A DNA stretch of 64,000 bases from Alphaproteobacteria bacterium (GTDB taxonomy: Bacteria > Pseudomonadota > Alphaproteobacteria > GCA-2746255): NCBI GenBank assembly GCA_965249135.1, contig OZ252220.1:1990056-2054055 (forward strand), in the 5' to 3' direction. A program made the translations under genes and the position numbers. Below are positions 3,371 through 21,724 of this stretch, piece by piece. Every line of letters starts with the position of its first letter. Position 1 is the stretch's first letter. The notes below the pieces were generated by a model, which worked only from the letters and a program-made list of their open reading frames with translations, had not been told where the DNA came from and made no database searches.

Positions 3371-4305
3371 ATGAGTGCAGATTCCCTAAAAACCCTTAAA
3401 TCCGTTTTGCTATCCGGCACCATGCTTCCTTTGGTGGCGGGGGCAGGCGTTATTGCGATTGGCGTGACGCTTGGTGACACCCCTGTGCAAGCCGAGCAGC
3501 TCGCGGGCTATTACAAAAATCAGGGAACGAAGAATCCCTGTGCCGCGAAGAATCCCGATATGGCAAGGCGGGGCTGCAACCCTTGTAACCCTTGCGCGGC
3601 GAAGGGCTGTACCCCTGTGGCCCGTGCGGTCCATGCGGTGCCGCTGCAGGCCCAGAGCTTTCGGATAAGGAAGCAGACGCGCTTTATAAGAAGCTCAAGG
3701 GCAAGATGGCGAAGGCCTACAAGCAATCCGGTCTTCCCTTCGCCGCCTATTACCAGACCTGGAAACGCTTCAATACCGTCCCATACGTTTCCGCCACCCA
3801 TGGCGGTCGTTATGTGAACAACTATGGGAACGCGAAGGCAGGCGCATACAGAAAATTCGAAGAAGCTGGGAAGATGCCCAAAAGCGCCATCCTTGTGAAA
3901 GACAGCTTCACGAGCGTGGCTGCGAAAGGATGCAACCCCTATAATCCCTGTGCGGCGAAGAACCCTTGTGCGGCGAAAGGATGCAATCCCTGCAACCCCT
4001 GCGCGGCGGAGAACCCTTGTGCGGCCAAGGGCTGCAACCCTTGCAGCCCGTGCGGTCCCTGCAACCCATGTGGGGCTACATCGAAATCTCCCATTGGTCC
4101 CCTCTTCGTCATGGAAAAGATGGGAGAAGGATTCTACCCCGCGAGCGGCGATTGGCGTTACACGATGGTCTTGCCAAACGGGCAGGTCTTTGGGACGACG
4201 AAGGGAAAGGGCTCCGACAAGGTTGAGTTCTGCATAACCTGTCACGTAGCTGCGGAAGATTACGATCACTTGATGTTCTTGCCGGACGAATATCGGAAAA
4301 AGTAA
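3371..4305 (+). CDS. cytochrome P460-family protein with signal peptide and two inserted Cys-rich NPC/AAK repeat modules; 1-nt frameshift near 3607-3617 (ORF pieces 3299..3817 and 3592..4305)
   Basis: AGGAG RBS before the ATG at 3371, followed by a signal peptide. C-terminal CITCH heme motif followed by [10 protein letters not shown], resembling the N. europaea P460 C-terminus (CAACH...DMVFTQFYP). About 20 extra Cys in [11 protein letters not shown] repeats. The frames join if one base is restored in tgtacccctgt. Confidence 0.7.
3919..4075 (+). repeat. coding tandem repeat (18-nt NPCAAK-type units) inside the P460 gene; a shorter block lies at 3535-3655
   Basis: Read directly: repeated aacccttg(t/c)gcggcgaag-like units. 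Confidence 0.8.
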
Positions 4306-4411: not shown

Positions 4412-5440
4412 ATGCGCGAGGATTGGACAAGGCCCCTTTTATTGGCAGCTGGCATATTTATCTTTTGTGTAACCGCCTACCATCTTTTTTCAGGGAACGA
4501 CGTCCTGGCCAGCGATTTGCGCAAATCCAGCGATTTGCGCAAATGGAGGTCAGAATGGCCCCATACGGACTTTGCAAAAACATCGATCGACTTCAATGAG
4601 ATTTCTTCCGGGGGACCCAAGAAAGACGGTATTCCTGCAATTGATTATCCGAGATTTAAGCCGATCGATGAGATTTCGACGGTCGGCAATGATGAACTCG
4701 TTGTGACGGTTATTATTGGTGATGAGGCACGTGCCTATCCAGTGCAAGTCCTGATGTGGCACGAGATCGTCAATGACAAGATCGGGGAGGTGCCCCTTTC
4801 CGTCACGTTCTGCCCGCTTTGCAACTCGGCAGTCGTTTTCGACCGGCGGCTGAAAGGGAAAGTCCTGGATTTTGGGACCACCGGTAAACTTCGCAACTCA
4901 GACCTCGTCATGTACGACCGTCAAACGGAAAGCTGGTGGCAACAGTTCACGGGTGAGGCGATTGCCGGATCCCTTACCGGCGAAAAATTGACGTTCCTCC
5001 CGGCGCGGGTCGAATCCTTCGCGAAGTTTCGGAAGCGGGCTCCAAAGGGAAAAGTGCTGGTCCCGAATTATACGAGCATGCGTGCCTACGGCTACAATCC
5101 CTATGCCGGCTATGACCGCAATCCCTATCCTTTCCGCTATCGGGGCGAAATGCCGTCAAACATCGCCCCGTTGGAAAGAGTCGTCTCGGTGGGGAAAGAG
5201 GCCTGGAGCCTCAAATTTCTCCGCAAACGTCGAAAGATCGTCGCCGATGGTCTTATTCTCACATGGGAATCCGGCCAGAACTCGGCGCTTGATACAGAGC
5301 GTATCAGCGAGGGGCGCGATATAGGGAATGTCATCGTCCAACGGAAAACGGCGGATGGCCCGGAAGATGCCGTTCACGACATAAGTTTTGCCTTTGCGTT
5401 TCATGCCTTTCATCCCGACGGCGTGATTCACGTGGATTAG
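4412..5440 (+). CDS. DUF3179-family protein with N-terminal TM anchor
   Basis: Characteristic DUF3179 segments (VTFCPLCNSAVVFDR, TGKLRNSDLVMYDRQTESWWQQFTGEAI). Confidence 0.75.
   Translation: MREDWTRPLLLAAGIFIFCVTAYHLFSGNDVLASDLRKSSDLRKWRSEWPHTDFAKTSIDFNEISSGGPKKDGIPAIDYPRFKPIDEISTVGNDELVVTVIIGDEARAYPVQVLMWHEIVNDKIGEVPLSVTFCPLCNSAVVFDRRLKGKVLDFGTTGKLRNSDLVMYDRQTESWWQQFTGEAIAGSLTGEKLTFLPARVESFAKFRKRAPKGKVLVPNYTSMRAYGYNPYAGYDRNPYPFRYRGEMPSNIAPLERVVSVGKEAWSLKFLRKRRKIVADGLILTWESGQNSALDTERISEGRDIGNVIVQRKTADGPEDAVHDISFAFAFHAFHPDGVIHVD
4510..4545. repeat. in-frame 18-bp perfect tandem duplication (SDLRKS x2) in the DUF3179 gene
   Basis: cagcgatttgcgcaaatc repeated twice (4510-4527, 4528-4545). Confidence 0.9.
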
Positions 5441-7441: not shown

Positions 7442-9106
7442 CTAACCGGCCTTGTGCGCTCCGTCCTGCTTGCGCAGTTTCCGACGCATGATCTTGCCGG
7501 TTGCCGTCATCGGCAATTCGGAAACGAACTCAACTTCGCGCGGATATTCATGCGCCGCAAGACGCGACTTTACGAAAGCCTGAATCTCGCTCGCCAGCGC
7601 ATCATTTGGCGAGAACTCCGGCTTGAGAACGACGAATGCCTTGACGACCTCTGTGCGCACCGGATCCGGGATGCCGATGGCAGCGACCAGCGCGATGGCC
7701 GGATGCTTCATCACGCATTCCTCGATCTCACCGGGACCGATGCGATAGCCAGCGCTGGTGATAATGTCATCGTCGCGACTCTTGTACCAAAAGTAGCCCT
7801 CGTCATCCTTACTTGCCAGATCGCCGGTCAGACACCAATCGCCGATGAATTTCTTCTTGGTGGCTTCCGGGTTCCGCCAATATTCGAGAAACATCACTGG
7901 ATCCGGGCGTTGGATTGCAACCTGACCGACGGTCCCCGGTGCTACCGGATGACCCTCCTCGTCGACGATATCGACGTTATGCCCTGGGATCGGACGTCCC
8001 ATGGAACCAGGTCTCACGGGCAGAATGGTAGCGCAATTGCCCAGCACCAAATTGACCTCGGTCTGACCATAGAACTCATTAATGGTAAGGCCGAATACCT
8101 CGTCCCCCCAACGCAACAATGCCTCGCCCAGCGTTTCGCCGCCACTGCCAAGGCTTCGTAGGTTGACGGCATGACGTTCCTTCGGATTTTCGACCTGACG
8201 CATGAGCTTGAGAGCGGTCGGCGGCAGGAAGACGTTGCGTACATTGTGCTTTGCGATCAGATGAAACGCATGTTCAGGATCAAACTTGCGCGCCCGGTGG
8301 GCGAGAACCGGAATGCCATGATGCCAACTCGGCAACAGCACATCGATCAGTCCGCCGATCCATGCCCAATCCGCCGGTGTCCAGAACAGATCTCCCGGCT
8401 GCGGAAACAGGTTGTGAGGAAACTCGACCCCTGGCAGATGACCGAGCAGTACACGATGGGCATGTACGGCTCCTTTCGGCGGGCCGGTCGTGCCGGAGGT
8501 ATAGATGATCAGTGCCGGGTCATTGGCGGTCGTGGCGACAGGCTTGAAATCGGCCGACGCCTCATCGAGGAGGGCCCAGAAATTGGCAGTGTCTTCATCC
8601 TTTCCCTCAGTCACGATAATGGTGGAAAGGCTCGGCAGGCGGTCGCGAATGGTGAGTAGCTTTTCAAGATTTGAACCGTCCGTGACGACCACGCGGGCAT
8701 CGCTGTTGGCGAGCCGGTATTCGATGGCATCCGGTCCAAACAGCGTAAACAGCGGAACGGCAATACCCCCCGCTTTGTAGACGGCAAGGTGGGTAATCGC
8801 CGCTTCGGGGGATTGCGATAGCAAAATGCCAACGCGTTCGCCGCGCTCGAGACCCAAAGCCTGTAACACGTTCGCGAAACGATTGGAAAGTTTTCTCAGT
8901 TGACCAAAGGTGTAGGTGGTAACGTTGCCGGCCTCGTCTTCGTAGATTAAGGCCCGTTTATTGGCCGGGTGCTTGTCGCAGACATCGATGCCAAGGTTGT
9001 ATTGCTCGGGCACCTCCCAGCGAAATGCTTGGCGAATTTCCTCGTAGCTTTTGCCCGGTTTTAGCATGCTTCTTCCCAAAAAATTTATTGGTTTTTTTTC
9101 ATTCAT
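7442..9106 (-). CDS. AMP-dependent acyl-CoA synthetase/ligase
   Basis: AMP-binding motif IYTSGTTGPPKGAVHAH; adenylate-forming C-terminal domain. Confidence 0.85.
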   Translation of the reverse strand: MNEKKPINFLGRSMLKPGKSYEEIRQAFRWEVPEQYNLGIDVCDKHPANKRALIYEDEAGNVTTYTFGQLRKLSNRFANVLQALGLERGERVGILLSQSPEAAITHLAVYKAGGIAVPLFTLFGPDAIEYRLANSDARVVVTDGSNLEKLLTIRDRLPSLSTIIVTEGKDEDTANFWALLDEASADFKPVATTANDPALIIYTSGTTGPPKGAVHAHRVLLGHLPGVEFPHNLFPQPGDLFWTPADWAWIGGLIDVLLPSWHHGIPVLAHRARKFDPEHAFHLIAKHNVRNVFLPPTALKLMRQVENPKERHAVNLRSLGSGGETLGEALLRWGDEVFGLTINEFYGQTEVNLVLGNCATILPVRPGSMGRPIPGHNVDIVDEEGHPVAPGTVGQVAIQRPDPVMFLEYWRNPEATKKKFIGDWCLTGDLASKDDEGYFWYKSRDDDIITSAGYRIGPGEIEECVMKHPAIALVAAIGIPDPVRTEVVKAFVVLKPEFSPNDALASEIQAFVKSRLAAHEYPREVEFVSELPMTATGKIMRRKLRKQDGAHKAG

Positions 9107-9224: not shown

Positions 9225-10496
9225 ATGATGGTGAAGACAAGGATCATTTGGATATGGGCCATGTTGGCCGCTGGCCTGATCTTTGGGATTCCGGCTTATG
9301 CCGAAGAAGTGCCCGAAGGGACAGTCATCAGCGCCAAGAATCTTGGCTCCCTTCTCGATAAGACCTTCGAGGGGGAAACCATTCAGAATCTTATCTCTGA
9401 GCAGTTTCAGTGGCAGATTCGCGAGAAGGGTCTGACGATGAAACTTAAGCATTCGAAGCCTCATCCAAAGGATCCGCAATGGGTGGCGGCGACGAATCGC
9501 AATCTGGAAGCGGTAACGCTGGATGGCGCAACGAATCAGGTGAATGGCTGGCTGGCTGGTGCGCCTTTTCCGGCGATCGACTTGCAAGACCCGAAGGCGG
9601 GCATCAAGGTCATGTGGAACATGTTCCTGGGCAAGCAGCAGGGCGATAGTCAGGAATACCCGAACACGGTCATTGCACTTCTCAACGACAAATCAGGGCT
9701 CGAACGGGTCCAGAAACAATTTGTCAAGCGGGTTTTCGTGAGAGGGGCTTTGCGCCGGGGCGGGCAAGTCTCCGAAGAGAAGAGAATCTTGGAAAAAACG
9801 CTTTCCGTCCTGACCGCACCCCTGGACTTGAAGGGAAATGGGCTGGTCCTGATCCGCTACGTAAATGGGGATCCGGATTGGCTATTGGCCTACGCGGTAG
9901 CGGCGCGCAAAGTACGGCGTTTTTCAGGGGCCTTCTGGATGGATAAGTTGGGTGCCACGGACTTCCTTACCGACGATTTGATGGTCTTGAGCGCACATCC
10001 GACCTGGTATCCAGAATTCAAGATAATCGCGAAAAAGAAGATCCTTGTAGTTGCCCATTCGAAGGACCCTTTCTGGCAGCCAAAGGCTGCCACGCCCCAA
10101 GAACGATTTCCTCTCTTCGATTTAGGAACGCCACCCTATTGGAATCCGGTCGATGAGTGGGAACCCCGTGAGGTCTACGTCGTCGAGGGAAAAACGCCCG
10201 AACAGCACCCCTATAGCCGCAAGGTGGTCTATGTCGATGCCGAGTTCTGGACCCCTTATTTGGGCGAGTATTACACGCCGAAGGGGCAGCTCTGGAAAAC
10301 GACGATCCAGGGCTACAGCGTCTTCCCGACCCAGGATGATCCAGACGGAAAGGTCTTGTGGCCGACATGGTCGGCGGTTTTTGATTTTCAGATCGGCCAC
10401 GCCACTATTCTGATGACGGATGAAAACATCCGATTCAATACCGATATTTCGCCAACGGAAATCAATCTGAAGGCCGTCAAAAGAGCAAAGTGGTGA
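9225..10496 (+). CDS. secreted DUF1329-like (LolA-like fold) protein
   Basis: AGGAG RBS and signal peptide; resemblance to the DUF1329 family recalled from memory. Confidence 0.5.
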   Translation: MMVKTRIIWIWAMLAAGLIFGIPAYAEEVPEGTVISAKNLGSLLDKTFEGETIQNLISEQFQWQIREKGLTMKLKHSKPHPKDPQWVAATNRNLEAVTLDGATNQVNGWLAGAPFPAIDLQDPKAGIKVMWNMFLGKQQGDSQEYPNTVIALLNDKSGLERVQKQFVKRVFVRGALRRGGQVSEEKRILEKTLSVLTAPLDLKGNGLVLIRYVNGDPDWLLAYAVAARKVRRFSGAFWMDKLGATDFLTDDLMVLSAHPTWYPEFKIIAKKKILVVAHSKDPFWQPKAATPQERFPLFDLGTPPYWNPVDEWEPREVYVVEGKTPEQHPYSRKVVYVDAEFWTPYLGEYYTPKGQLWKTTIQGYSVFPTQDDPDGKVLWPTWSAVFDFQIGHATILMTDENIRFNTDISPTEINLKAVKRAKW

Positions 10497-10522
10497 GGGG
10501 TAGCTTTTTGTGAAGCATCGCA

Positions 10523-10559
10523 AAACCGGGCAGAGCCGATAGGCTCCGCCCGGTTTTTA
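10523..10559 (+). terminator. rho-independent terminator (12-bp GC stem, T5)
   Basis: aaaccgggcagagcc...ggctccgcccggttttt immediately after the DUF1329 gene. Confidence 0.6.
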
Positions 10560-10602: not shown

Positions 10603-10635
10603 AAAAAAAAGAGGAGCGCGAAAGCGCCCCTCTTG
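10603..10635 (-). terminator. rho-independent terminator (10-bp stem with one G.U pair, U8 tail on the minus transcript)
   Basis: agaggggcgc-tttc-gcgctcctct-tttttttt on the minus strand, downstream of the P460-like paralog. Confidence 0.6.
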
Positions 10636-10660: not shown

Positions 10661-11863
10661 CTAGCTCGCATCGGTCTCGAAATAAAGCGTCTTCTTGTAC
10701 TCATCCGGAAGGGCGAACAAATAATTGGATTTTGCGCCTCTTTCCTTTGTGATATCTGCAGCACTACCTTTGGCGTCGATCCTGGTGATCTTCCAGTCGC
10801 CGGTTGCAGCGCTGAAGCCTTTTTCCATCTTTTCAAGAATGACGAGCTCGCCGGCCCTCCACCTGGCGGTGAAGCCGGTGCGATTGCCATCACCGTGGAA
10901 GCTCTCCAGCACGAGAATCGTGTCGGCCGGCATCCGGTTGAAATTGCCCCACTTGTCCACCTTGTCGTTTGCATAAAGGTTGACGTAATGGTCGCCGGTG
11001 TATTTTCCGATTTGGAAGGGAACGAAGTTATAGCGCTTCCATTCCGTGTATTCGGAAACGATCTCGTTCTGGGATTTTTCCCACTCTTCCACCATCTTCC
11101 ATCCAACCGCCATATAGAGGGCCTGCGCTTCCTTCTTCGAGAGCTTGTTGCGGGCGACCAATTCAGCTTGCTCTTCAGCCGACCTCAAGTCTTCACGACC
11201 GATCACTTCGCCGCGCACGACTGGAGATTCAATGGCGTTGACGACCAAGGCGTCTCCCTCGGTGTGAACGATGATCTCCCAGAACATGCCGGTTGCGAAA
11301 AGCGACGTCACGGCAAGAACGAACTGATCGTAGTCAAACGGCTCACCCGGACGTGTACGCTTGGCGTGGTCTTCGCCCAAGATATAGCGTTCGGCAAAAC
11401 CTGCTTCGAGATCCTTCTCGCCCTCGACGCGAAGCTCTTTAACGACCTTGCCGTTCTTCATAGGCCAAGTCTTGCCGGCACCGGGCGCGTAGAACGTGCC
11501 AGGGAGGTCAATCGTATCCGGGTAAAACCGGTAATAGTCCTTCGGCAAATCTTGCGTGAAGTTTTGGGGGGCGGCATCTGTTCGATCGTGATGCGTGAAC
11601 GTGTTTTCTTTCACGTTGTAGATATGCCCGCCCCGAATGAAGGTGTCTGGTGCGTCCGGCGATTCGGCCCTGGCAGACGTGCCCATGACCAGAGCGGCTG
11701 TCGTTACGACGACAGCCCCAAAGGCTATTGGAAGTATCGCTCCGGACGACAGAAGGGATTTCACGAAACTGGAACTCATGGCTTCCTCGCTGTCTTTGTT
11801 CTGTTTAGAAATTCTTTGTTTTTTATCGTTGGCGCCAAGCTGGCGCGTTGAATTATTTAACAT
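10661..11863 (-). CDS. P460-fold paralog lacking the CXXCH heme motif, with a ~200-aa N-terminal extension and signal peptide
   Basis: C-terminal 180 aa align with the 3371..4305 protein (WKRYNFVPF vs WKRFNTVPY; ILEKMEKGFSAATGDWKITRI vs [22 protein letters not shown]; LFALPDEYKK vs [10 protein letters not shown]), but SNY replaces CITCH. Confidence 0.65.
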   Translation of the reverse strand: MLNNSTRQLGANDKKQRISKQNKDSEEAMSSSFVKSLLSSGAILPIAFGAVVVTTAALVMGTSARAESPDAPDTFIRGGHIYNVKENTFTHHDRTDAAPQNFTQDLPKDYYRFYPDTIDLPGTFYAPGAGKTWPMKNGKVVKELRVEGEKDLEAGFAERYILGEDHAKRTRPGEPFDYDQFVLAVTSLFATGMFWEIIVHTEGDALVVNAIESPVVRGEVIGREDLRSAEEQAELVARNKLSKKEAQALYMAVGWKMVEEWEKSQNEIVSEYTEWKRYNFVPFQIGKYTGDHYVNLYANDKVDKWGNFNRMPADTILVLESFHGDGNRTGFTARWRAGELVILEKMEKGFSAATGDWKITRIDAKGSAADITKERGAKSNYLFALPDEYKKTLYFETDAS

Positions 11864-12039
11864 ATTTTCAACGGGTCAGGAAATCTAGTCAATATCGCTT
11901 GATTGGTGGCCTGACTTTGCGGGCGCGGGAGACCAGGGCTTGGCCTTATTTCTTAAGCTGTTGATCTGACTTAAGAACTGGGATTAACCTTAGCGACGAT
12001 ACCGAATTTTAAAAGCCGGCCCAGAGGCGCCAGGGTGCA

Positions 12040-13365: not shown

Positions 13366-14475
13366 TTAAAAAGGCGTAAATCCAGACTGACCCCCCATAC
13401 GACGGTAACGGAAAGGGGGCGGCGCCTCGCCAGGCTCGCTTTCCACCAAGCGTCTTACCAAGTCGTGGTCTGGGGAAAGTTCACAGACCGGGTCCGTGTT
13501 TGCCGCGTTTCCGGTCAACATCAGCGCCTGGCAACGACAGCCCCCCCAATCGACTTCTCGCCGGTCGCAGGACCGGCAGGGCTCTGGCATCCAGTCGGTA
13601 CCTCGGAAACGATGGAAGGCGTCCGATTCCAACCAGATATCGGTCAAACTCCGCTCCCGGACATTGTCGAAGTGAAGGTCGGGGATGGTCTCGGCGGCAT
13701 GGCACGGAAGCACCTTGCCGGATGGGCTTACATTCAGGAATTGGTTGCCCCATCCGCCCATGCAGGCCTTTGGCCGCCTCGCATAGTAATCCGGCGGCAC
13801 GTAATCGATGAGTAGAACCCCCTTCAGCCGCTCTTCCGCCTCCACGACGACGGCATTTGCCGCTTCAATCTGCTCACGGCTGGGAAGCAGTGCACGTCGG
13901 TTTTCGATGGCCCATCCGTAATATTGGGCATGGGCGATCTCCAGCCGTCCGGCGCCGAGATCGACGGCAAGATCAATCATTGCGTCCAGCCGCTCCAGAT
14001 TCTGGCGGTGAAAGACGCAATTGATCGTGAGCGCAAGGCCGGCATCGCGAATAAGCCGTGCCACCGTAAGTTTCTTTTTGTGTGCACCTTGTATGCCGGC
14101 GATCCGGTCTGCTGGCTCAGCAGAGACGTCCTGAAGACTGAGTTGAACATGCTCGAGGCCAGCTTTCCTAAGTGCGGCAATCTTCGATTCATCAAGGGGG
14201 ATGCCAGAAGTGATCAGGTTCGTATAAAGCCCAAGGCCTGTGGCATGGCGAACGAGGGTGGAGAGGTCCTTGCGAGCGGCGGGTTCGCCGCCGGAGAAGT
14301 GGATTTGATAGGCGCCAAGGGCAGCTGCTTCCTCCACTACCCGGCACCATTCCTCCGTTCCTAGTTCGTCGCCTACGCCCTCCAGTGCCAGCGGGTTCGA
14401 GCAATATGGGCATTGCAGCGGGCAGCGGTGGGTGAGCTCGGCTAGCACGGCAAGAGGGGGTGCCGGCGTGTTCAT
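13366..14475 (-). CDS. pqqE: PQQ biosynthesis radical-SAM enzyme PqqE (start at MNTPAPP; the listed ORF extends spuriously to 14673)
   Basis: CPLQCPYC radical-SAM motif; SPASM C-terminal cysteines; ATGA overlap with the pqqD stop. Confidence 0.9.
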   Translation of the reverse strand: MNTPAPPLAVLAELTHRCPLQCPYCSNPLALEGVGDELGTEEWCRVVEEAAALGAYQIHFSGGEPAARKDLSTLVRHATGLGLYTNLITSGIPLDESKIAALRKAGLEHVQLSLQDVSAEPADRIAGIQGAHKKKLTVARLIRDAGLALTINCVFHRQNLERLDAMIDLAVDLGAGRLEIAHAQYYGWAIENRRALLPSREQIEAANAVVVEAEERLKGVLLIDYVPPDYYARRPKACMGGWGNQFLNVSPSGKVLPCHAAETIPDLHFDNVRERSLTDIWLESDAFHRFRGTDWMPEPCRSCDRREVDWGGCRCQALMLTGNAANTDPVCELSPDHDLVRRLVESEPGEAPPPFRYRRMGGQSGFTPF

Positions 14476-14759
14476 ACCGCAAGGATCCCCTGATCCGCGA
14501 GGTCCTGAAGAAGCTCCAATACGTCCTCCCCAACCCTTTCGCTGGAGGTCTCGTAGCGCTCGGCAAGGGTTGTAACCATAGCAGCAACGGATGAATTCCC
14601 ATCGCAGAGCTTCAGTACCTCGACCGCGATTTCGTCTGGCACGAGAAGGCGTTCCGGGGCCAGCACGATCCACCGCCCGCGCTTTTCATCGAAACGAAAC
14701 CGAACATGCGGCGCAAGTCGTGGCATGGTCTCGGTGTCAAGCACACGTCGTTTATTCAT
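14472..14759 (-). CDS. pqqD: PqqA-binding chaperone PqqD
   Basis: 95 aa, characteristic PqqD sequence; operon position. Confidence 0.85.
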   Translation of the reverse strand: MNKRRVLDTETMPRLAPHVRFRFDEKRGRWIVLAPERLLVPDEIAVEVLKLCDGNSSVAAMVTTLAERYETSSERVGEDVLELLQDLADQGILAV

Positions 14760-15496
14760 GCACCGCTCTCCGGTTGGAAGGCGCCAGGTGGAACCCGTCC
14801 GGGATCAACATAGGCATAGGTAAGCGCATCCAGCTGTGTCCACAAAACGTCACATTTGAAGTGGAGGGCCTGAAGGACGCGTTGCTGGGCTTCTGCCGTT
14901 CGTGCTTCCCTCTTCACATAGTCGAGGGCAAAATCGGCGTCCCGCGTTGCCTGGTCGAGGCGCTTGCGAAAATAGGAAAGCGTCGTCTCATCGATGAAAT
15001 CGTAGTGTTCCAGCATGCCGGCGATCCGCTCGCGATGGATTTTCGGCGCGAAGAGTTCCGTCAATGAAGAGGCGATTCCCTCAAGAAGGGATCGCTCGGC
15101 GACGAAGTGAACATAGGCTTTCACGGCAAACCGCGTGGCTGGCAGGACCCCTTGCATGGAGACGACGTCGTCCCGGGGAAGTCCCAGGCCATCCGTCAGT
15201 TTCAGCCAACGGGCGATACCCCCCTCGCGTTCCGGCGTCCCGTCGTGATCCTCGATGCGAACACGCCAGGCGCGTCGGAGTGCCGGGTCCGTCATACGCG
15301 AAAGCAGCACGGCATCCTTGATCGGAATGTGCGCTTGATAGCAATAGCGGTTAAGTGCCCAAGCCTGCACCTGTCCTTTCCGAAGCTTCCCTCCGTGAAG
15401 AAGTGCATGGAAAGGATGCTTGTCATGATAGCGCTCGGCTCCGATCGCATGCAGCGCCGCTTCAAGTTCATCCGGTGTCAATGGCACGCCACTCAC
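14756..15496 (-). CDS. pqqC: pyrroloquinoline-quinone synthase PqqC
   Basis: PqqC/TenA-like sequence; operon position. Confidence 0.9.
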   Translation of the reverse strand: MSGVPLTPDELEAALHAIGAERYHDKHPFHALLHGGKLRKGQVQAWALNRYCYQAHIPIKDAVLLSRMTDPALRRAWRVRIEDHDGTPEREGGIARWLKLTDGLGLPRDDVVSMQGVLPATRFAVKAYVHFVAERSLLEGIASSLTELFAPKIHRERIAGMLEHYDFIDETTLSYFRKRLDQATRDADFALDYVKREARTAEAQQRVLQALHFKCDVLWTQLDALTYAYVDPGRVPPGAFQPESGA

Positions 15497-16425
15497 AACT
15501 GAATCTCCATGCCGTCATAGGCCACTTCCCAGCCCTTCTCGGTAACCGACTCGCGTTCCGGCGAATCATCCATGAGAACAGGGTTCGTATTGTTGAGATG
15601 AACGAAGATTTTCCGTTTCACCTCTAACGTCCGAAAGGCGGCAAGGCTACCTTCTTCACCGGAGATACTCATGTGTCCCATACGCTTTCCCGTCTTTACG
15701 CCAGTGCCGGCCGTGACCATTTCATCGTCCTGCCATAGCGTTCCGTCGAAAAACACAAGGGGCGTCTTACGAAGGCGCTTCGCCAACCCATCGGGGAAGG
15801 CCGCGCAGCCCGGTATGTAATAGAAATAACCATCCCCCGTCTCGGATGCCACCCGAAGCGCGATGGTGTCTTCCGCAACGCTGCCGAAATCTGGTCCCGC
15901 CGTCGGATCCTCCAGATAAAGCGCCACTTTCCCCGGGACGGTGAATGCCTCGACGACGAGGCCGGAGGGAGCGCGATCGGCGTTTTCGAGTCGCGTTGGT
16001 GTGTCGAGGGTAAATTTTCTCCGGCTCACTACCTCAGGGTTTAGCGCTTGAAAAATTTGATTTGCATCGAAAGTCCCGTGCACCCTTGCCGTCGCGTAAA
16101 GGCTTAACGGTTGCCCCTCACGAAGGGTAAGAAGCCCTGCGATGTGATCGACATCGGCATTCGTCACCACGACACCGCCAATCGGACTGTGCCTTGCCCC
16201 ATCCGCTGGATGAAGGGCCGGATTGTCGTTCAGTTGCTGGCGAAGATCGGGGGAGGCGTTGAGAAGAAACCAGGGCCCTTCATCCGCGCGCACGGCAAGG
16301 GAGGACTGGGTTCTGGGGTGGACTTTCGGATCCCCCGAACGGGCGCGCTGGCAGACGGGGCAGTTACAGTTCCACTGAGGGAGCCCCCCACCGGCAGCCG
16401 ATCCCAGAACGAGAATCTGCAACAA
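15493..16425 (-). CDS. pqqB: PQQ biosynthesis protein PqqB (metallo-beta-lactamase fold)
   Basis: Conserved N-terminus LVLGSAAGGGLPQWNCNCPVC. Confidence 0.9.
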   Translation of the reverse strand: MLQILVLGSAAGGGLPQWNCNCPVCQRARSGDPKVHPRTQSSLAVRADEGPWFLLNASPDLRQQLNDNPALHPADGARHSPIGGVVVTNADVDHIAGLLTLREGQPLSLYATARVHGTFDANQIFQALNPEVVSRRKFTLDTPTRLENADRAPSGLVVEAFTVPGKVALYLEDPTAGPDFGSVAEDTIALRVASETGDGYFYYIPGCAAFPDGLAKRLRKTPLVFFDGTLWQDDEMVTAGTGVKTGKRMGHMSISGEEGSLAAFRTLEVKRKIFVHLNNTNPVLMDDSPERESVTEKGWEVAYDGMEIQL

Positions 16426-16484
16426 CCGGCGCCTCCCGTTGCGATGTTTTCTTCGAGGGCTGTGTGAAACTTAAAAGTTTGAAA

Positions 16485-16568
16485 TCAGCCTTCCGCACAG
16501 GCGTAGGCGTTGATCTCAAGGCCGATGCGGATCACTTCGATCCGGGGTTTCTTCCACTGCTTTCGCAT
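16485..16568 (-). CDS. pqqA: PQQ precursor peptide PqqA (27 aa: MRKQWKKPRIEVIRIGLEINAYACAEG)
   Basis: Conserved W-K-K-P and the E-x-x-x-Y precursor motif (EINAY). Lies 59 bp upstream of pqqB. It is the C-terminal 27 codons of the listed 95-aa ORF 16485..16772. Confidence 0.8.
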   Translation of the reverse strand: MRKQWKKPRIEVIRIGLEINAYACAEG

Positions 16569-16686
16569 ATCTGCTTCCCTGGGCCTTGTCTTCTTTTCGT
16601 CTAAGGCCTTTCCATGCAAAGTATGGCCTTTCCGTCTGCAGAGAGGCAAGGGCTTTATCTGGAGGATGGGGAGGTAAGGTACCGCA
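16569..16686. promoter_or_regulatory. pqqA / ABC-transporter divergent promoter region with direct repeat ggcctttcc x2 (16-bp spacing)
   Basis: Read directly: aaggcctttccatgcaaagtatggcctttccgtc. Confidence 0.3.
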
Positions 16687-17691
16687 ATGCTGCGAAGGCA
16701 AAGAGCCCAATGGAAAATATTGCTGGTCACGGCGCTTATCCTCGCCGTTGCGCCTGCCGGAGCCGTGTCCACTCAAGAGGCCACGCCGTTAATCCGGCTT
16801 GCCGTCCTGAAATACGGTTCCGTGGCCTGGGAACGCGACGTGATCGAACACCATGGGCTTGATCGCAAACATGGCTTTACCCTGGATACCGTCGAGCTTG
16901 CCGGCACACAGGCCTTGAAGGTTGCGCTCCAGGCGAATCGCGTCGATATCATTCTCTCCGATTGGCTCTGGGTTTCCCGCATTCGCCAGATGGGTTCCGA
17001 TGTTACCTTCGCCCCCTATGGGGCGTGGGCGGGCGGACTCGTGGTTTCGGCGGACTCCTCGGTCCAAACTCTCGCGGCGTTGCGGGATCGCCGCCTCGGT
17101 GTTGCCGGTGGGCCGATCGATAAGAATTGGCTTCTCTTGCGGGCATTGGTCGCTCGTGAAGAAGGCATGCGGCTTGTCGAAGCGACGGACGTCGTCTTCG
17201 GTGCGCCGCCGCTCTTGCGGATGGAATTACAACAAGGGCGTTTGGATGCTGTGCTCACCTATTGGCAAGACGTGGCGAAGCTTCGAATGACCGGATTCCG
17301 CCTGCTTATCGACACGGCAGAAGTCGCGAAACGTCTTGGCATTCAACGGCGGGTCCCGTTTTTGGGCTATGTCTTCTCGGAAGGGTGGGCGGAGAAGCAC
17401 CAAAAGACCGTTCTGGGGTTTCTGGCGGCCTCCCGTGAGGCAAAGGCGATCCTTCGTGATTTGGACGCGGAATGGGACCGGATTGCCCCGCTCACCCGCA
17501 CACAGAATGAGGCGCAGCTTCATGGCGTACGTGATGCCTATCGGCGTGGCCTTCTCGATCGCTGGGGAAACGAGGAGCGGACAGCGGCGAAGGCCCTCTT
17601 CCGGATTCTTGCTGAAATTGGGGGCGAGCCGTTGACCGGTGGGCAGGCGGTCCTTGCGGCGGGTACGTTCTGGGCGGAGGACCGATTTTAG
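16687..17691 (+). CDS. ABC transporter periplasmic substrate-binding protein (NMT1/NitT-TauT family)
   Basis: Signal peptide; NMT1-like fold signature; followed by its permease and ATPase. Confidence 0.75.
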   Translation: MLRRQRAQWKILLVTALILAVAPAGAVSTQEATPLIRLAVLKYGSVAWERDVIEHHGLDRKHGFTLDTVELAGTQALKVALQANRVDIILSDWLWVSRIRQMGSDVTFAPYGAWAGGLVVSADSSVQTLAALRDRRLGVAGGPIDKNWLLLRALVAREEGMRLVEATDVVFGAPPLLRMELQQGRLDAVLTYWQDVAKLRMTGFRLLIDTAEVAKRLGIQRRVPFLGYVFSEGWAEKHQKTVLGFLAASREAKAILRDLDAEWDRIAPLTRTQNEAQLHGVRDAYRRGLLDRWGNEERTAAKALFRILAEIGGEPLTGGQAVLAAGTFWAEDRF

Positions 17692-17694
17692 GGA

Positions 17695-18444
17695 ATGTTC
17701 AGCCTGAAAGAACACGCACCGAGGCTTGCCTCTTTTCTCCTCTTTCTCCTTCTTTGGGAGGTTGGGGCGGTTGCGTTCGAGAGCCGTCTCCTGCCGCTGC
17801 CGGAAGCCGTCTTTTCCGTACTGCTTGACGGCCTGCGAAATGGCGAAATCCCCTATCATATTGCCATTACGCTTGGACGCGTGGCTGCGAGTTTTGTGCT
17901 CGCGATGGCGATCGGGTCTGCCGTCGGCATTGCGATGGGGCAATCTCGGTTGCTTGATCGGTTGTTTGATAGCTGGCTTGTTTTTTTCCTGAACGTTCCT
18001 GCGCTGGTCGTCATTTTGCTGGCCTATGTTTGGTTTGGACTGATCGAAGCCGCCGCGATCTTGGCCGTTGCCGTGAACAAAATCCCAAACGTTGCCGTTA
18101 CCTTACGGGAAGGCTCTCGTGCACTTGATCGAGACTACCTTGAAATGGCGAGAAGTTTTCACTTGAGTTCCATCCGAACGTTTCGCCATGTGGTTCTCCC
18201 GCAACTTTCCCCGTATTTCCTTGCCTCTGCGCGTTCCGGACTGGCGTTGATCTGGAAGATTGTCCTCGTCGTCGAACTGCTTGGGCGAAGTGATGGGGTC
18301 GGCTTTCAATTGCATCTCTATTTTCAACTGTTCGACGTGACTTCCATTCTTGCCTACACCCTGGCCTTCATTGCCGTCGTGCTGGTGATCGAAGCGACGG
18401 CCCTTCGGCCGCTTGACCGTCGGGCGCTTCGGTGGCGGCGATGA
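17695..18444 (+). CDS. ABC transporter permease (NitT/TauT-type)
   Basis: Polytopic membrane protein with the EAA-like loop of binding-protein-dependent permeases. Confidence 0.8.
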   Translation: MFSLKEHAPRLASFLLFLLLWEVGAVAFESRLLPLPEAVFSVLLDGLRNGEIPYHIAITLGRVAASFVLAMAIGSAVGIAMGQSRLLDRLFDSWLVFFLNVPALVVILLAYVWFGLIEAAAILAVAVNKIPNVAVTLREGSRALDRDYLEMARSFHLSSIRTFRHVVLPQLSPYFLASARSGLALIWKIVLVVELLGRSDGVGFQLHLYFQLFDVTSILAYTLAFIAVVLVIEATALRPLDRRALRWRR

Positions 18445-19190
18445 GCGGAATCCGGGTCGATGTCCATGCGAAGCACTTTCCGGATACAACCGGGGCCGGG
18501 TTGCGGAAGGTCCTCGACACACTCCGTTTTACGGCCGAAAAGGGGGAATTTCTAGCCATCGTCGGGCCATCCGGCTGCGGCAAGACGACGCTTCTCAACC
18601 TGATTGCGGGTCTGGATTTGGCTTACGAGGGCAATGTCGAACTTCCTCTCGCATCCGGAAAGGACATGCCTGCCATCGGTTATGTCTTTCAAAATCCGCG
18701 CCTGCTTCCTTGGCGGACGGTGCTCGAAAACATCCACCTTGTACTCGAACACCCTGGGAAGAAGGCGGCCCTTGTAGAGGCACTGCTAGAAGAAACCGGT
18801 CTCTCGGAATTCCAGGATGCGTACCCTGGGAAACTCTCCCTCGGTCAATGCCGGCGCGCCGCCATCGTCCGCGCCTTTGCCCCTGAACCGGACCTGCTCC
18901 TTATGGATGAACCTTTCGTCTCGCTCGATGCGACGACGGCCGAACGGCTTCGCCAGCTCCTTCTGCGAATTTGGCAGGTTCGCCCGACGACAGTTCTGTT
19001 CGTCACGCACGATCTGGACGAAGCGATCACGCTTGCCGATCGCATTCTCGTTCTTTCGGATATTCCGGCGACGGTGGTGGCGGATGTGCCGGTCACGATT
19101 CCACGCGAGAAACGCATGGACGCTGCGTTGATCGATGAATTCCGGCGCCGTCTTCCTGAATCCAAGGCAACCGGTTCGTCGGATTCCTAA
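18432..19190 (+). CDS. ABC transporter ATP-binding protein
   Basis: Walker A GPSGCGKTT, LSGGQ-like signature, Walker B LLMDEP. Confidence 0.85.
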   Translation: MAAMSGIRVDVHAKHFPDTTGAGLRKVLDTLRFTAEKGEFLAIVGPSGCGKTTLLNLIAGLDLAYEGNVELPLASGKDMPAIGYVFQNPRLLPWRTVLENIHLVLEHPGKKAALVEALLEETGLSEFQDAYPGKLSLGQCRRAAIVRAFAPEPDLLLMDEPFVSLDATTAERLRQLLLRIWQVRPTTVLFVTHDLDEAITLADRILVLSDIPATVVADVPVTIPREKRMDAALIDEFRRRLPESKATGSSDS

Positions 19191-19194
19191 TGCC

Positions 19195-19998
19195 CTAGGT
19201 ACCAACCTTCCGCTGCATCATGCCGCGTGCCGGGTTGTAACCAAGGACGGCGAGGGCTAGGAACAAAACAAAAGTTCCGGTGGTGATGGCGATGGCCCAG
19301 AGATTAACCTCGCCGTATAGCGCAAAGCGGATGGTTTCGACTGCATGGGTGAACGGGTTGAAGCGGCAAATCTCATAAAGCAACACGCTCGACTCTTGCA
19401 TTTTCCAAAGCGGGTAAAGTGCGGAAGATAGAAAGAACATCGGGAAAATCACGAAGTTCATGATACCAGCGAAGTTCTCAAGTTGGCGAATGGCAGACGA
19501 AAGCAAAAGCCCAAGTGCACCGAGCATAAGACCAGAAAGGACCAGTGCTGGAAAGATGGTGACATAGCCAAGGATCGGTGCCTCGATGCCGATCAGCCAG
19601 GCAATGCCCAGAAAGGCGTAGACTTGCAGGATCGAGACGAAGGTTCCCGCCATAAGTTTACAAATTAAGAGATACCATCGGGGCAGCGGGCTTACGAGAA
19701 GCGTGCGCATGCTTCCCATTTCCCTGTCGTAAACCATCGAGAGGGAACTTTGCATGCCGTTGAAGAGTTGGATCATGCCGATGAGACCGGGGACGATATA
19801 GACCTCGTAGGTGATATAGGTTTCGTAAGGTGGAATAATCGAAATACCAAGCGCTGCTCGGAAGCCGGCTGCAAAAACGACAAGCCAGATGAGAGGACGA
19901 ACGAGAGCGGCGAGAAACCGTTCGCGCTGTTGTATGAATCGCAGTGCCTCGCGGGTCAGAATCCCGATAAAGCAACGGAGGTAATGCATGGCACTCAC
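19195..19998 (-). CDS. ABC-2 type transporter permease
   Basis: Six-TM ABC-2 permease pattern; coupled to the upstream ATPase. Confidence 0.8.
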   Translation of the reverse strand: MSAMHYLRCFIGILTREALRFIQQRERFLAALVRPLIWLVVFAAGFRAALGISIIPPYETYITYEVYIVPGLIGMIQLFNGMQSSLSMVYDREMGSMRTLLVSPLPRWYLLICKLMAGTFVSILQVYAFLGIAWLIGIEAPILGYVTIFPALVLSGLMLGALGLLLSSAIRQLENFAGIMNFVIFPMFFLSSALYPLWKMQESSVLLYEICRFNPFTHAVETIRFALYGEVNLWAIAITTGTFVLFLALAVLGYNPARGMMQRKVGT

Positions 19999-20789
19999 GC
20001 GGCGCCCTCCATCGGCGTCAGTTTCGTGAAGGCGTCGCCAATCGTTGCCACGCCAGCCGCTCGAACGACGTCTGCAACCGAGCCCTCGGCCTGAATCCGT
20101 CCTTCATGCAGCAAGACGATACGATCGGTGGGTGCAATTTCATCGATCAGATGCGTTGCCCAAAGAACGGCGATCCCTTCGTCTTCGCAGAGATGATGAA
20201 TGTGATCGATGATGGCTTGGCGGGTTGGAACGTCCAGACCGACGGTAGGTTCGTCTAGTAGAAGAAGGCGCGGCCGGTGAAGGAGTGCGCGGGCGATTTC
20301 AACCCGGCGGCGGTGTCCACTGTTGAGTGTCCGGACCTTCTCGTTTCGACGCTCTTCCATGCCGAGTCGCTGGAGTTCGATTTCGATCCGCGCGAAGACC
20401 TCTCGCTTCCGCATGCCACGAAGCGCCGCGTGGTAGCGAAGGTTCTGCATCACGCTAAGGTCCAAATCCAGCGTCGATTGCTGGAAAACGACCCCCATCT
20501 CCGCCAGCGCCGGCAGGGGGGCCGTTTGAACGTTATGACCGCCGACGGCGATGGTTCCCTGGCCGGCGTCGTAGAGGCGGGTGATCAGGGAAAAAAGCGT
20601 CGTCTTTCCGGCGCCGTTCGGGCCCAAAAGCGCGGTGAACCCACCCGGCGCAATCGTAAAACCGATGTCGGCAAGGGCTGGTTTCGCGCCATAGCCGAAG
20701 CTTATCCCCTCGACGCGAAGAGCCGGCCTTGAACCGCCATTTGGTTTACGGTCCGACATCGATCCCCCAGGGATAGCGACCCGTGGCAA
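19995..20789 (-). CDS. ABC-2 type transporter ATP-binding protein (PQQ-dependent-dehydrogenase-system-associated type); true start probably at MSDRKP (~20759)
   Basis: Walker A GPNGAGKTT, Walker B LLLDEPT. Confidence 0.85.
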   Translation of the reverse strand: MPRVAIPGGSMSDRKPNGGSRPALRVEGISFGYGAKPALADIGFTIAPGGFTALLGPNGAGKTTLFSLITRLYDAGQGTIAVGGHNVQTAPLPALAEMGVVFQQSTLDLDLSVMQNLRYHAALRGMRKREVFARIEIELQRLGMEERRNEKVRTLNSGHRRRVEIARALLHRPRLLLLDEPTVGLDVPTRQAIIDHIHHLCEDEGIAVLWATHLIDEIAPTDRIVLLHEGRIQAEGSVADVVRAAGVATIGDAFTKLTPMEGAA

Positions 20790-21720
20790 CGGATTTCCGA
20801 ACCTTCAGGGCCTCCACATCGATGATGGAGATGTCGTTGCTGACCCCGTTCGTCGAATAAAGCCACTTTCCGTCCGGCGAGAAGGCAAGATTCCATACCC
20901 TGTTGCCGACAAGAAGATATTTCTCCACCTCATAAGTATGACGGTTCACTACGGCGACGTGATTTGCCGGACCGAGCGCCACGAATGACCGTGAGCCGTC
21001 CCCAGAATGAGCAATGCCGACCGGCTGGATCTTCTCGGATTCGATGCCAGAGATGGCAAACGCAATTCTTTGGGTAATTTCGTGGGAGGTGCTGTCGATG
21101 ACATTCACCGTGCCGCCGATCTCGGAGGAAACCCATGCCTCCTTCGCATCCGGCGTAAAGGCGATGTATCGAGGGCGGCCGTCGACAAGAATGTTCTTGA
21201 CGACCGTTTGCGTCTCCACCTCGATCCAGTGAACCATGTTTGTGGTCTCGGAGGTGACGACGGCCCATCGCCCATCCCCGCTTATGCCCACGCCCTCCGG
21301 TTCGACTCCGACCGGGATTTCGGCCACGACTTCGCGTTTCTCGACGTCGATGACGGTGGCGAGGTTGTCATCTTCATTCGATACATAGAGAAGCCGTCCA
21401 TTTGGGTGAAGGGCGAAGGTTTCCGGATCATCCCCCGAAGGAAGCGTATGCGTGATTTTACCCGTCTCCAGATCAAGAACCTGGATCGTATCGTCGTCGC
21501 TGGCACAGATGTAAAGCGCCTTCTTGTCGTGGCTTAACGTGATCCCACGGGGGCGTTGACCGACGGCAATCGTCTGCTTGAGTTCACCTGTCTTGCCATC
21601 GAGGATGGCGATCGAATTGTCCTTTTCGTTCGAGACATAGACGGTCTGAGCGAAAGCCGCATTTGGGACGGAAAGGGCCAATGCCAAAAGTGTGATTCCT
21701 AACGCCCGTTTTGCCGCCAT
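20746..21720 (-). CDS. YVTN-family beta-propeller repeat protein with signal peptide (PQQ-dependent catabolism-associated beta-propeller type)
   Basis: Start taken at MAAKRALGITLLALALS (signal peptide) rather than the 398-aa extension. Repeated propeller blades; position between the LivK-like binding protein and the ABC-2 ATPase. Confidence 0.7.
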   Translation of the reverse strand: MAAKRALGITLLALALSVPNAAFAQTVYVSNEKDNSIAILDGKTGELKQTIAVGQRPRGITLSHDKKALYICASDDDTIQVLDLETGKITHTLPSGDDPETFALHPNGRLLYVSNEDDNLATVIDVEKREVVAEIPVGVEPEGVGISGDGRWAVVTSETTNMVHWIEVETQTVVKNILVDGRPRYIAFTPDAKEAWVSSEIGGTVNVIDSTSHEITQRIAFAISGIESEKIQPVGIAHSGDGSRSFVALGPANHVAVVNRHTYEVEKYLLVGNRVWNLAFSPDGKWLYSTNGVSNDISIIDVEALKVRKSVATGRYPWGIDVGP

Positions 21721-21724
21721 GGTC

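Follow-up and report, generated by a model that had tools for sequence, protein, structure and literature searches.

A POTRA domain of the BamA type joined to a P460-type domain without a haem site in a predicted exported protein of uncultured Alphaproteobacteria

Introduction

A gene on the minus strand of contig OZ252220.1 (GenBank assembly GCA_965249135.1, an alphaproteobacterium of the lineage GCA-2746255) encodes a protein in which an orphan N-terminal segment, a POTRA domain related to POTRA1 of BamA and a P460-type domain deprived of its haem site are joined, a combination that is previously undescribed. The gene, referred to here as the fusion gene, lies within the stretch that was analysed, positions 1,990,056 to 2,054,055 of the contig (64,000 nucleotides, hereafter the window, in whose numbering all coordinates are given unless another locus is named). 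It is well known that P460 and c′-beta cytochromes carry out nitrogen-oxide chemistry and that the POTRA domains of BamA take part in outer-membrane protein assembly. In the fusion protein, each of these building blocks appears without the part that defines its family, the P460 domain without haem and the POTRA domain without a barrel. The literature yielded no paper that combines P460 with POTRA or that describes haem-less P460 homologues, and the only name given to the protein in the databases is ‘hypothetical protein’.

The fusion gene and its product

The open reading frame (ORF) that an earlier sequence-only reading had taken as the gene spans 10661..11863 on the minus strand and would give 400 residues from an upstream ATG at 11863. 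This frame is real and its start has to be moved: the true start is almost certainly ATG 11779 (M29 of the longer translation), which gives a product of 372 residues. The assignment is made because a Shine-Dalgarno sequence, GAGGAAG (11782-11788), stands 3 bases 5′ of this codon, because the eight full-length proteins among the ten close homologues (62–97% identity) all begin at the equivalent ATG, with N-termini that read MSSSFVK or MRSSFVK, and because the stretch from ATG 11863 is not conserved in frame, insertions of 17 nt (locus L009) and 8 nt (locus L006) placing that codon out of frame. The parts of the gene are as follows, with the evidence for each in brackets.

10661..11779, minus strand: coding sequence of the fusion protein, 372 residues plus stop (homologue starts, Shine-Dalgarno sequence, ratio of nonsynonymous to synonymous substitution rates, dN/dS)
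11666..11779, minus strand: leader, residues 1-38, with K7 in the n-region, a long hydrophobic core and A-x-A before E39 (Kyte-Doolittle hydropathy, conservation)
11456..11665, minus strand: orphan N-terminal segment, residues 39-108 (invariant motifs F.RGGH.YN, YRFYP and PG.FYA..WP.K)
11204..11455, minus strand: predicted POTRA domain, residues 109-192, beta-alpha-alpha-beta-beta (profiles, hhalign, AlphaFold2, Foldseek)
11042..11203, minus strand: linker and N-terminal helices of the P460-subfamily domain, residues 193-246, LSKKEAQALY...EYTEW (alignment with the P460 paralogue of the window)
10664..11041, minus strand: predicted haem-less beta-sheet domain of the P460/c′-beta type, residues 247-372 (BLASTP, profiles, AlphaFold2, Foldseek)

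The mature protein, of approximately 38 kDa and free of cysteine, is predicted to be exported.

A P460-type domain that has lost its haem site

The C-terminal 160 or so residues of the fusion protein align with the P460-like ORF 3592..4305 of the plus strand (BLASTP E 6e-22, 28% identity), so that the likeness to a P460 gene of the window noticed in the sequence-only reading stands, and all the motifs that it quoted are present. Two of the checks that it had proposed, profile alignment and structure prediction, lead to the same family. A profile built from nine full-length members of the fusion family and searched against 1.84 billion representative proteins recovers, over profile positions ~200-345, about 120 proteins outside the family, reaching uncharacterised PF16694 proteins at E values down to 1.7e-16; nearly all the full-length P460-type matches carry CXXCH some 20-30 residues before the C-terminus. 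PF16694 was matched by every one of the 35 relatives placed in alignment A2 (36 of its 44 sequences overall), and the A2 profile matched the solved structures 7S5O (2e-6), 6E0X (4e-4), 6HIH (8.5e-3) and 2JE2 (2e-2). In the AlphaFold2 model built on A2, residues 210-360 are confident, with a predicted local distance difference test score (pLDDT) of 83-97, and the helices of residues 195-246 reach 71-96. The best PDB matches of the C-terminal domain in Foldseek are Methylococcus cytochrome c′-beta (9HQT, 6HIH) and Nitrosomonas P460 (2JE2, 8GAR), with a probability of 1.00 and a target TM score of 0.54. The C-terminal region is a domain of the P460 family on three counts, namely pairwise alignment, profile matches and predicted fold.

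What is missing from this domain is the equipment for binding haem. CXXCH is absent from the whole 400-residue translation; its loss had been recognised and had been described as a replacement by SNY, whereas alignment A5 places there, between A349 and K350 (~10732/10733), the deletion of a 15-residue segment (xxVxFCxxCHxAAE) that had held the axial His and closed the haem pocket. None of the 24 available fusion-family sequences contains a cysteine, and therefore covalent attachment of haem c to the protein is judged impossible. The family's conserved Lys column (ILVKDSF in the paralogue, VIVKEL in 6E0X), which, given the alignment, we take to be that of the haem cross-linking Lys, is occupied by Leu291 (codon 10907-10909), and by L or I in all members of the fusion family. 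In cytochrome P460, a Lys is cross-linked to the haem meso carbon (PMC6457333, PMC10411619). The THG of P460 relatives has become (Y/F)TGD in the fusion family (alignment A5), and new family-specific invariant residues, including SFHGD..R.G..A.W, adjoin the former cross-link position. The haem platform itself, formed by the beta-sheet core, is still there and is modelled with confidence.

Compared with the P460 (CytL) and c′-beta cytochromes of PF16694 (N. europaea 2JE2, Nitrosomonas sp. AL212 6E0X, Methylococcus capsulatus McP460 6HIU and McCP-beta 6HIH), the fusion protein thus has the fold, the helices and beta-sheet domain of the subfamily (motifs WKRYN..P, Y.N.YAN, DSF, EKM..GF...GDW and P.EY) and export in common. 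Unlike them, it has approximately 165 extra mature residues at the N-terminus, POTRA included, it stays under the Pfam threshold and, on the losses just described, it could not be a haem-c redox or NO/NH2OH-binding protein.

A POTRA domain related to POTRA1 of BamA

Searches of Pfam, NCBIfam and PDB sequences with the whole protein gave no family-level match except weak matches to BamA, and it was through these that the POTRA domain was found. Against PDB sequences, the family profile matched only BamA, with profile positions ~133-181 lying on POTRA1 (best E 2.2e-5), and the NCBIfam BamA model TIGR03303 gave a weak match (4.5e-4) over model positions 1-73 only. Among the 1.84 billion representatives, profile positions ~95-190 match N-terminal fragments of alphaproteobacterial BamA (E 6e-8 to 3e-4), and hhalign aligns family residues 100-200 with alphaproteobacterial BamA POTRA1 at a probability of 99.2% (E 1.1e-19, 35% identity over 78 columns). 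The family also carries the hallmark LFATG.F..v....eGD.LvV.v.E.P of that domain.

The predicted structure agrees with this assignment. DSSP applied to the AlphaFold2 model gives strands 115-120, 166-174 and 177-184 and helices 128-134 and 150-162, that is, the beta-alpha-alpha-beta-beta order over ~80 residues of BamA POTRA1, and a separate model of the N-terminal half (predicted template-modelling score, pTM, 0.67; POTRA pLDDT 79-91) has the same topology as the full model. When this half was searched with Foldseek, the best 14 matches were POTRA domains of BamA, as were 25 of the best 26, the remaining one being a cyanobacterial Omp85 POTRA. The BamA alignments cover ~73-85 columns at a root-mean-square deviation (rmsd) of 1.9-3.2 Å and mostly 25-31% identity; for E. 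coli BamA (2QCZ/2QDF/2V9H) the figures are 28-31% at 2-3 Å. The BAM-SurA structures 9hg5, 8pz2 and 8pzu are among the structural neighbours of the region. On sequence and model alike, residues 109-192 are best described as a POTRA domain homologous to BamA POTRA1. The fusion protein differs from BamA in that it has one POTRA domain instead of five, lacks the 16-stranded Omp85 barrel (Bac_surface_Ag) and ends in a P460-type domain; its POTRA domain carries in the alpha1-alpha2 loop a seven-residue insertion, GEDHAKR, that is invariant in the family and sets it apart from BamA POTRA1.

The leader and the orphan segment

The hydropathy of the leader reaches a Kyte-Doolittle maximum of 2.18 over residues 13-31, within a hydrophobic stretch of ~25 residues, and the motif AxA|E that follows the hydrophobic core is kept in all fusion homologues; by these features the leader would be a signal peptide of the Sec type or, if left uncleaved, an anchor. 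Its first 17 residues are nearly invariant across the family, and its codons show a low synonymous divergence (dS 0.2-0.7, versus 1-2 in the rest of the gene), which suggests that the nucleotide sequence itself is constrained or that the leader has a role beyond that of a generic Sec signal. The same leader motif, SLLSSGAILP, is found in P460 proteins with NPCAAK repeats (11 representative clusters), among them the paralogue of the window.

For the orphan segment (residues 39-108), no match outside the family was found in the 1.84 billion representatives, no Pfam match at E<=10 and no fold match with Foldseek. Weak hairpins in the model of the N-terminal half hint at an augmentation of the POTRA sheet by added strands. 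The sequence-only reading had assigned the protein an N-terminal domain of unknown function, a description that fits residues 39-108 and no longer fits the rest, given the BamA-type POTRA domain that follows and the leader shared with NPC-repeat P460 proteins.

Selection and distribution

Pairwise Nei-Gojobori estimates over eight orthologues give a dN/dS of 0.06-0.22, with dS of up to ~2, and this holds for each part of the mature protein, from the orphan segment and the POTRA domain to the helices and the haem-less beta domain; the range is 0.07-0.21 for the orphan segment and 0.12-0.21 for the whole gene, and the comparison of the window with locus L010 gives 0.21. By this measure, the POTRA domain is conserved as strongly as the P460-type part, or more. 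The reading frame is intact in eight independent assemblies. Taken together with a promoter-like block of its own, a Shine-Dalgarno sequence and a strong terminator, this purifying selection marks the fusion gene as a working gene. Because the haem attachment site is lost and the gene is still at work, the earlier idea of a P460 fold repurposed without haem proves right.

The distribution of the family is very narrow. Clustering at 50% identity (1.84 billion representatives) leaves it as a single cluster and clustering at 90% (5.8 billion) as ten, and it is present in 2 of 185,579 species genomes, both of them metagenome-assembled genomes of uncultured Alphaproteobacteria. More distant full-length relatives were not found by a word-indexed search (10 proteins), an exhaustive hidden Markov model search or the search of the 185,579 species genomes. 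A foreign origin was considered and rejected, the GC content of the gene (52-53%) lying within the local range of 52-63%.

Relatives within the P460 family and the origin of the fusion gene

The window contains a second gene of P460 descent, which can be described as follows.

3371..4305, plus strand: NPC-repeat P460 paralogue that has a haem site (CITCH), keeps the family's Lys (ILVKDSF) and carries Cys-rich NPCAAK repeats (frameshifted in the window)

This range had been given as one gene, a description that does not hold in the window: its 935 nt are not a multiple of three and the coding sequence is split over two frames. A DNA alignment locates the cause in one missing A between 3611 and 3612, where the window reads GGCTGTA-CCCC and the intact orthologues of L003 and L007 read GGCTGCAACCCC; the paralogue is either a real pseudogene or the product of a sequencing error at an AA dinucleotide. 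The part at 3592..4305 scores 27.9 bits against PF16694, just over the cutoff of 27. One of its NPCAAK units reads NPDMAR.

The paralogue belongs to a subgroup with Cys-rich runs of the NPCAAK or CNPCNPC type (window 3520-3650 and 3925-4075; P0022, P0058, P0081, P0107, P0121 and other proteins), placed between leader and domain and in the loop just after the conserved Lys. No description of such repeats in P460 proteins was found; they may have a metal-binding or thiol-redox role. The members of this subgroup share the leader motif K..LLS[ST]T.[IL]P...G.G, and this shared motif points to it as the source of the fusion gene, which probably descended from an NPC-repeat-type P460 gene and kept its leader. 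The likeness to these proteins (window 3371-4305; L003 16795-17742; P0022, P0036, P0081, P0121 and others) extends to the P460-subfamily domain and the locus. They differ from the fusion protein in keeping CXXCH and Lys and in their Cys-rich repeats in linker and domain loop, whose places are taken in the fusion protein by the orphan-plus-POTRA module and a short HGDGNRTGFTARW loop. On this account, the Cys-rich linker would have been replaced by the orphan-plus-POTRA module.

In a neighbour-joining tree of 63 P460 domains, the fusion family is monophyletic (50 of 50 replicates) and sits on a very long branch, because of which its sister group is not settled, the best candidate being recovered in 16 of 50 replicates. 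A duplication within the locus, which was also considered as the origin, is not shown by this tree. A further relative is a 212-residue PF16694 protein (P0012; L003 11338-11976, L007 6101-6736, L008 11362-12000), which has the haem motif CMNCH and carries Arg (VLVRDSF) at the position of the conserved Lys. The haem-less domain is 24-33% identical to either paralogue, the NPC-repeat or the 212-residue one.

A second lineage derived from P460 (P0062, P0087, P0091, P0137, P0140, P0154) keeps CXXC and has D, L, T, S or N after it in place of the His ligand; the conserved Lys is replaced by Pro or Ala, and some members have long Pro-rich tails of VLDP repeats. From the sequences of this lineage it follows that the haem ligand set appears to have been lost more than once in the superfamily.

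Expression signals and flanking hairpins

Three features bear on the expression of the fusion gene.

11782..11892, minus strand: upstream region with a promoter-like TTGACT-17-GAAAAT (11864-11892), a conserved 5′ leader and the Shine-Dalgarno sequence (conservation in six loci)
10609..10634, minus strand: intrinsic terminator of the fusion gene, an 11-bp GC-rich stem followed by T8 (folding energy)
10522..10557, either strand: bidirectional terminator hairpin just past the convergent DUF1329 gene (folding energy)

The region 5′ of the gene (11782-11900) is far more conserved than neutral sites. The block TTGACTAGATTTTCTG.CC.GTTGAAAATATGTTA is nearly invariant, with three variable positions, in six loci (window, L003, L006, L008, L009, L010), and is followed by a conserved 5′ leader of 85-100 nt (..TCAA.G.G.CAGC....CGC.AACGAT.AAAA..). 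Candidate roles for this conserved region are those of an operator, a leader RNA or a short upstream ORF (ML..S..Q..ANDK). The 5′ leader matches no Rfam family and shows no covariation, and the idea that it holds a riboswitch or other structured RNA was rejected.

Downstream, the segment 10600-10660 (61 nt), which contains the intrinsic terminator, folds at -23.8 kcal/mol (z -4.3), and the segment 10497-10570 (74 nt), which contains the bidirectional hairpin, at -36.2 kcal/mol (z -4.8). The fusion gene had been described as flanked by strong terminators on both sides; both strong hairpins turn out to lie 3′ of it, and the candidate on the 5′ side (~11935) was rejected, as it folds no better than shuffled sequence (z 0.34).

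The locus

The gene order is the same in every contig: pqqBCDE, a c-550-type cytochrome gene, a divergent DUF6969 gene, the fusion gene, a convergent DUF1329 gene, a GMC oxidoreductase gene, DUF3179 and the NPC-repeat P460 gene. The convergent neighbour, which had been recognised beforehand, was confirmed by a Pfam scan.

9225-10496, plus strand: DUF1329 gene, convergent with the fusion gene (Pfam)

A search for co-occurrence of the haem-less form with DUF1329 or genes for pyrroloquinoline quinone (PQQ) had also been proposed. The synteny is indeed perfect in every contig, and it is not independent functional evidence, because the contigs that carry the fusion gene all come from one narrow clade and are collinear over more than 20 kb.

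The P460 neighbours are less constant. In L003, L004, L005, L007 and L008, the fusion gene is followed after 216-240 nt by a true PF16694 gene in the same orientation, and an adjacent 212-residue P460 gene was not found in the window, L001, L010, L009 and L006; it is present in the L003/L007/L008 clade, a sister clade, and missing from the clade of the window and from the L009/L006 clade. In L009 the fusion gene and DUF1329 stand further apart, and tblastn detected no P460 remnant in this wider gap. At a distance of 6-7 kb from the fusion gene, the window, L003, L005 and L007 carry an NPC-repeat P460 with the same type of leader, no counterpart of which turned up in the flanks of L001 and L010. 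All of these loci have kept the fusion gene, even where the P460 neighbours are damaged or missing, which argues against a strict dependence on a P460 encoded in the locus.

In L001, a relative that is 97% identical (14923-18619), the GMC oxidoreductase gene is called in two pieces (396 + 83 residues) and DUF3179 is shortened to residues 126-342 beside an rve_3 transposase; either part of this locus is breaking up or these are frameshift errors of long-read assembly. The DUF3179 protein of the window (gene 4412-5440, plus strand) has a hydrophobic segment at its N-terminus and, beyond it, a CPLC motif (TFCPLCNSAVVF). The DUF3179 family is listed among those with selenoprotein members (PMC9312934), and its pairing with a very Cys-rich P460, seen in the window, L003, L005 and L007, hints at a thiol-redox partnership between the DUF3179 and NPC-repeat P460 proteins. 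The literature yielded nothing functional for DUF6969 or DUF3179 and only speculative roles for DUF1329.

Other neighbours vary as well. A gene for an AMP-binding protein (acyl-CoA ligase-like; 7442-9106, minus strand) lies between DUF1329 and the GMC oxidoreductase gene in the window, L001 and L010 only, and L003 and L009 have, directly upstream of the GMC gene, a protein of 189-224 residues whose L003 copy shows the twin-arginine-like RRRFLKFG. In the window (13366-22915 and 23032-27975), pqqE/D/C/B adjoin two sets of ATP-binding cassette (ABC) transporter genes, a YncE-like beta-propeller gene and a gene for a Peripla_BP_6 protein, and a 1647-residue NAD-specific glutamate dehydrogenase follows the cluster. 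The cluster resembles what we take to be the pedA1A2BC-type arrangement found near PQQ dehydrogenases; no PQQ-dependent dehydrogenase was seen among the Pfam-scanned ORFs of the window, a scan that did not cover every ORF.

Discussion

The reading that we hold, tentatively and at somewhat less than even confidence, is that the fusion protein is an exported, non-redox, protein-binding adaptor or chaperone-like scaffold of the periplasm; its architecture rests on direct comparison, and from that architecture we infer the mechanism. Binding by beta-strand augmentation is established for the POTRA domains of BamA, TpsB and FtsQ, and SurA docks near BamA POTRA1. By analogy, the POTRA domain of the fusion protein would bind an extended segment of a partner in the same way. 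The haem-less P460 domain would act as a structural or oligomerisation module, a role proposed because P460 proteins are homodimeric, as is known for cytochrome P460 (PMC10411619). Between them, RGGH.YN, the GEDHAKR insertion of the POTRA domain and SFHGD..R.G..A.W beside the former haem site would make up a surface specific to the family. The suggestion in the sequence-only reading that the protein might be a regulator finds nothing to rest on, as domains for DNA binding or signalling are absent and export is predicted; its other suggestion, of a non-haem binding protein, may still apply.

Several observations weigh against the adaptor. Its role is deduced from domain content, and the clade-limited synteny does not identify partners. 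For the invariant motifs with His, Asp and Glu, a catalytic or metal site is as good an explanation as a protein-binding surface. AlphaFold2 leaves the placement of the domains relative to one another uncertain (pTM 0.48), and the orphan segment, of low AlphaFold2 confidence, is effectively unmodelled. With the domains scanned separately, Pfam POTRA models gave no match at E<=10, and neither did PF16694 for the window protein, whose relative P0007 scores 22.9 bits (E 1.2e-4), below the gathering threshold of 27 bits. Lastly, depending on the fate of the leader, the protein may be either soluble or anchored.

Another way of looking at the former haem pocket is to consider that it was remodelled to bind a ligand non-covalently (haem b or another tetrapyrrole, PQQ, or a hydrophobic or nitrogen-oxide species), the protein being then a carrier or sensor. 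The retained and confidently modelled haem platform is in keeping with this, as are the clustering of new invariant residues, aromatic and polar ones among them, next to the former cross-link position and the presence of pqqBCDE, the c-550-type cytochrome and the GMC oxidoreductase beside the gene in every contig. We nevertheless consider such a ligand unlikely: the axial His and the pocket-closing segment are deleted, no ligand-binding family was detected, the synteny comes from a single narrow clade, and the strong conservation of the POTRA domain would be left without an explanation.

The dimeric nature of cytochrome P460 raises a second alternative, in which the haem-less domain is a pseudo-subunit that heterodimerises with a true P460 of the locus, the NPC-repeat or the 212-residue protein, while the POTRA arm tethers, matures or regulates the cytochrome. 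The PF16694 gene immediately downstream in five loci and the NPC-repeat P460 with its common leader a few kilobases away in four would supply the partner. In the clade of the window, however, these partners are missing or damaged (the adjacent gene absent from five loci, the NPC-repeat gene frameshifted in the window and not found beside L001 and L010), and yet the fusion gene is under purifying selection there; the low identity of the haem-less domain to either paralogue and its very long branch likewise speak against this pairing, which is decidedly unlikely.

If the leader stayed uncleaved, the protein would be a bitopic envelope-assembly factor of the inner membrane with a layout like that of FtsQ/DivIB, possibly acting with the LolA-like DUF1329 protein in outer-membrane biogenesis. 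The length and hydrophobicity of the leader, its unusual conservation and its low-dS codons would suit an anchor, and DUF1302/DUF1329 proteins have been proposed to take part in outer-membrane biogenesis (bioRxiv 10.1101/2020.07.04.188060). The likeness to FtsQ/DivIB is by analogy only (a hydrophobic N-terminus, a POTRA domain, a beta-rich periplasmic C-terminal domain): there is no sequence or fold match, FtsQ/DivIB structures being absent from the fold matches, the POTRA domain is of the BamA POTRA1 type, the C-terminal domain is derived from P460, and in place of a cell-division context the neighbours are pqq, cytochrome c, DUF6969 and DUF1329. Since the A-x-A|E signal-peptidase motif after the hydrophobic core is also conserved, and no DUF1302, BamA or Lol gene was seen among the ~50 window ORFs scanned with Pfam (not every ORF was scanned), we regard this layout as improbable.

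The idea of a decaying P460 relic, or of a chance or assembly artefact without function, draws on the lost cofactor site and on the frameshift of the other P460 gene in the window, and can be set aside almost entirely, contradicted as it is by the low dN/dS in every domain at dS of up to ~2, the intact frame in eight independent assemblies, the conserved promoter block, Shine-Dalgarno sequence and terminator, and homology statistics far beyond chance.

Returning to the adaptor, a more specific and improbable form of it would make the protein a ‘pseudo-cytochrome’ escort, soluble or anchored in the periplasm, in which the SurA- and substrate-facing POTRA1 of BamA, captured on a haem-less P460 scaffold, plugs a client into the SurA/BAM delivery route or competes with it. 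The Cys-rich P460 proteins, the LolA-like DUF1329 protein and a component of the PQQ pathway would be its candidate clients. If this were true, a POTRA domain would be working outside Omp85, TpsB and FtsQ, and a cytochrome fold would have been recruited for envelope biogenesis.

The practical significance of these findings is limited by the very narrow distribution of the family, confined to one uncultured alphaproteobacterial clade, and by a function that is deduced only. If the fusion protein is a binding adaptor, it would represent a natural free-standing POTRA1 of the BamA type together with a cytochrome fold kept for a non-redox role, and it could help in understanding both what POTRA1 recognises and what parts of the P460 surface count, haem aside.

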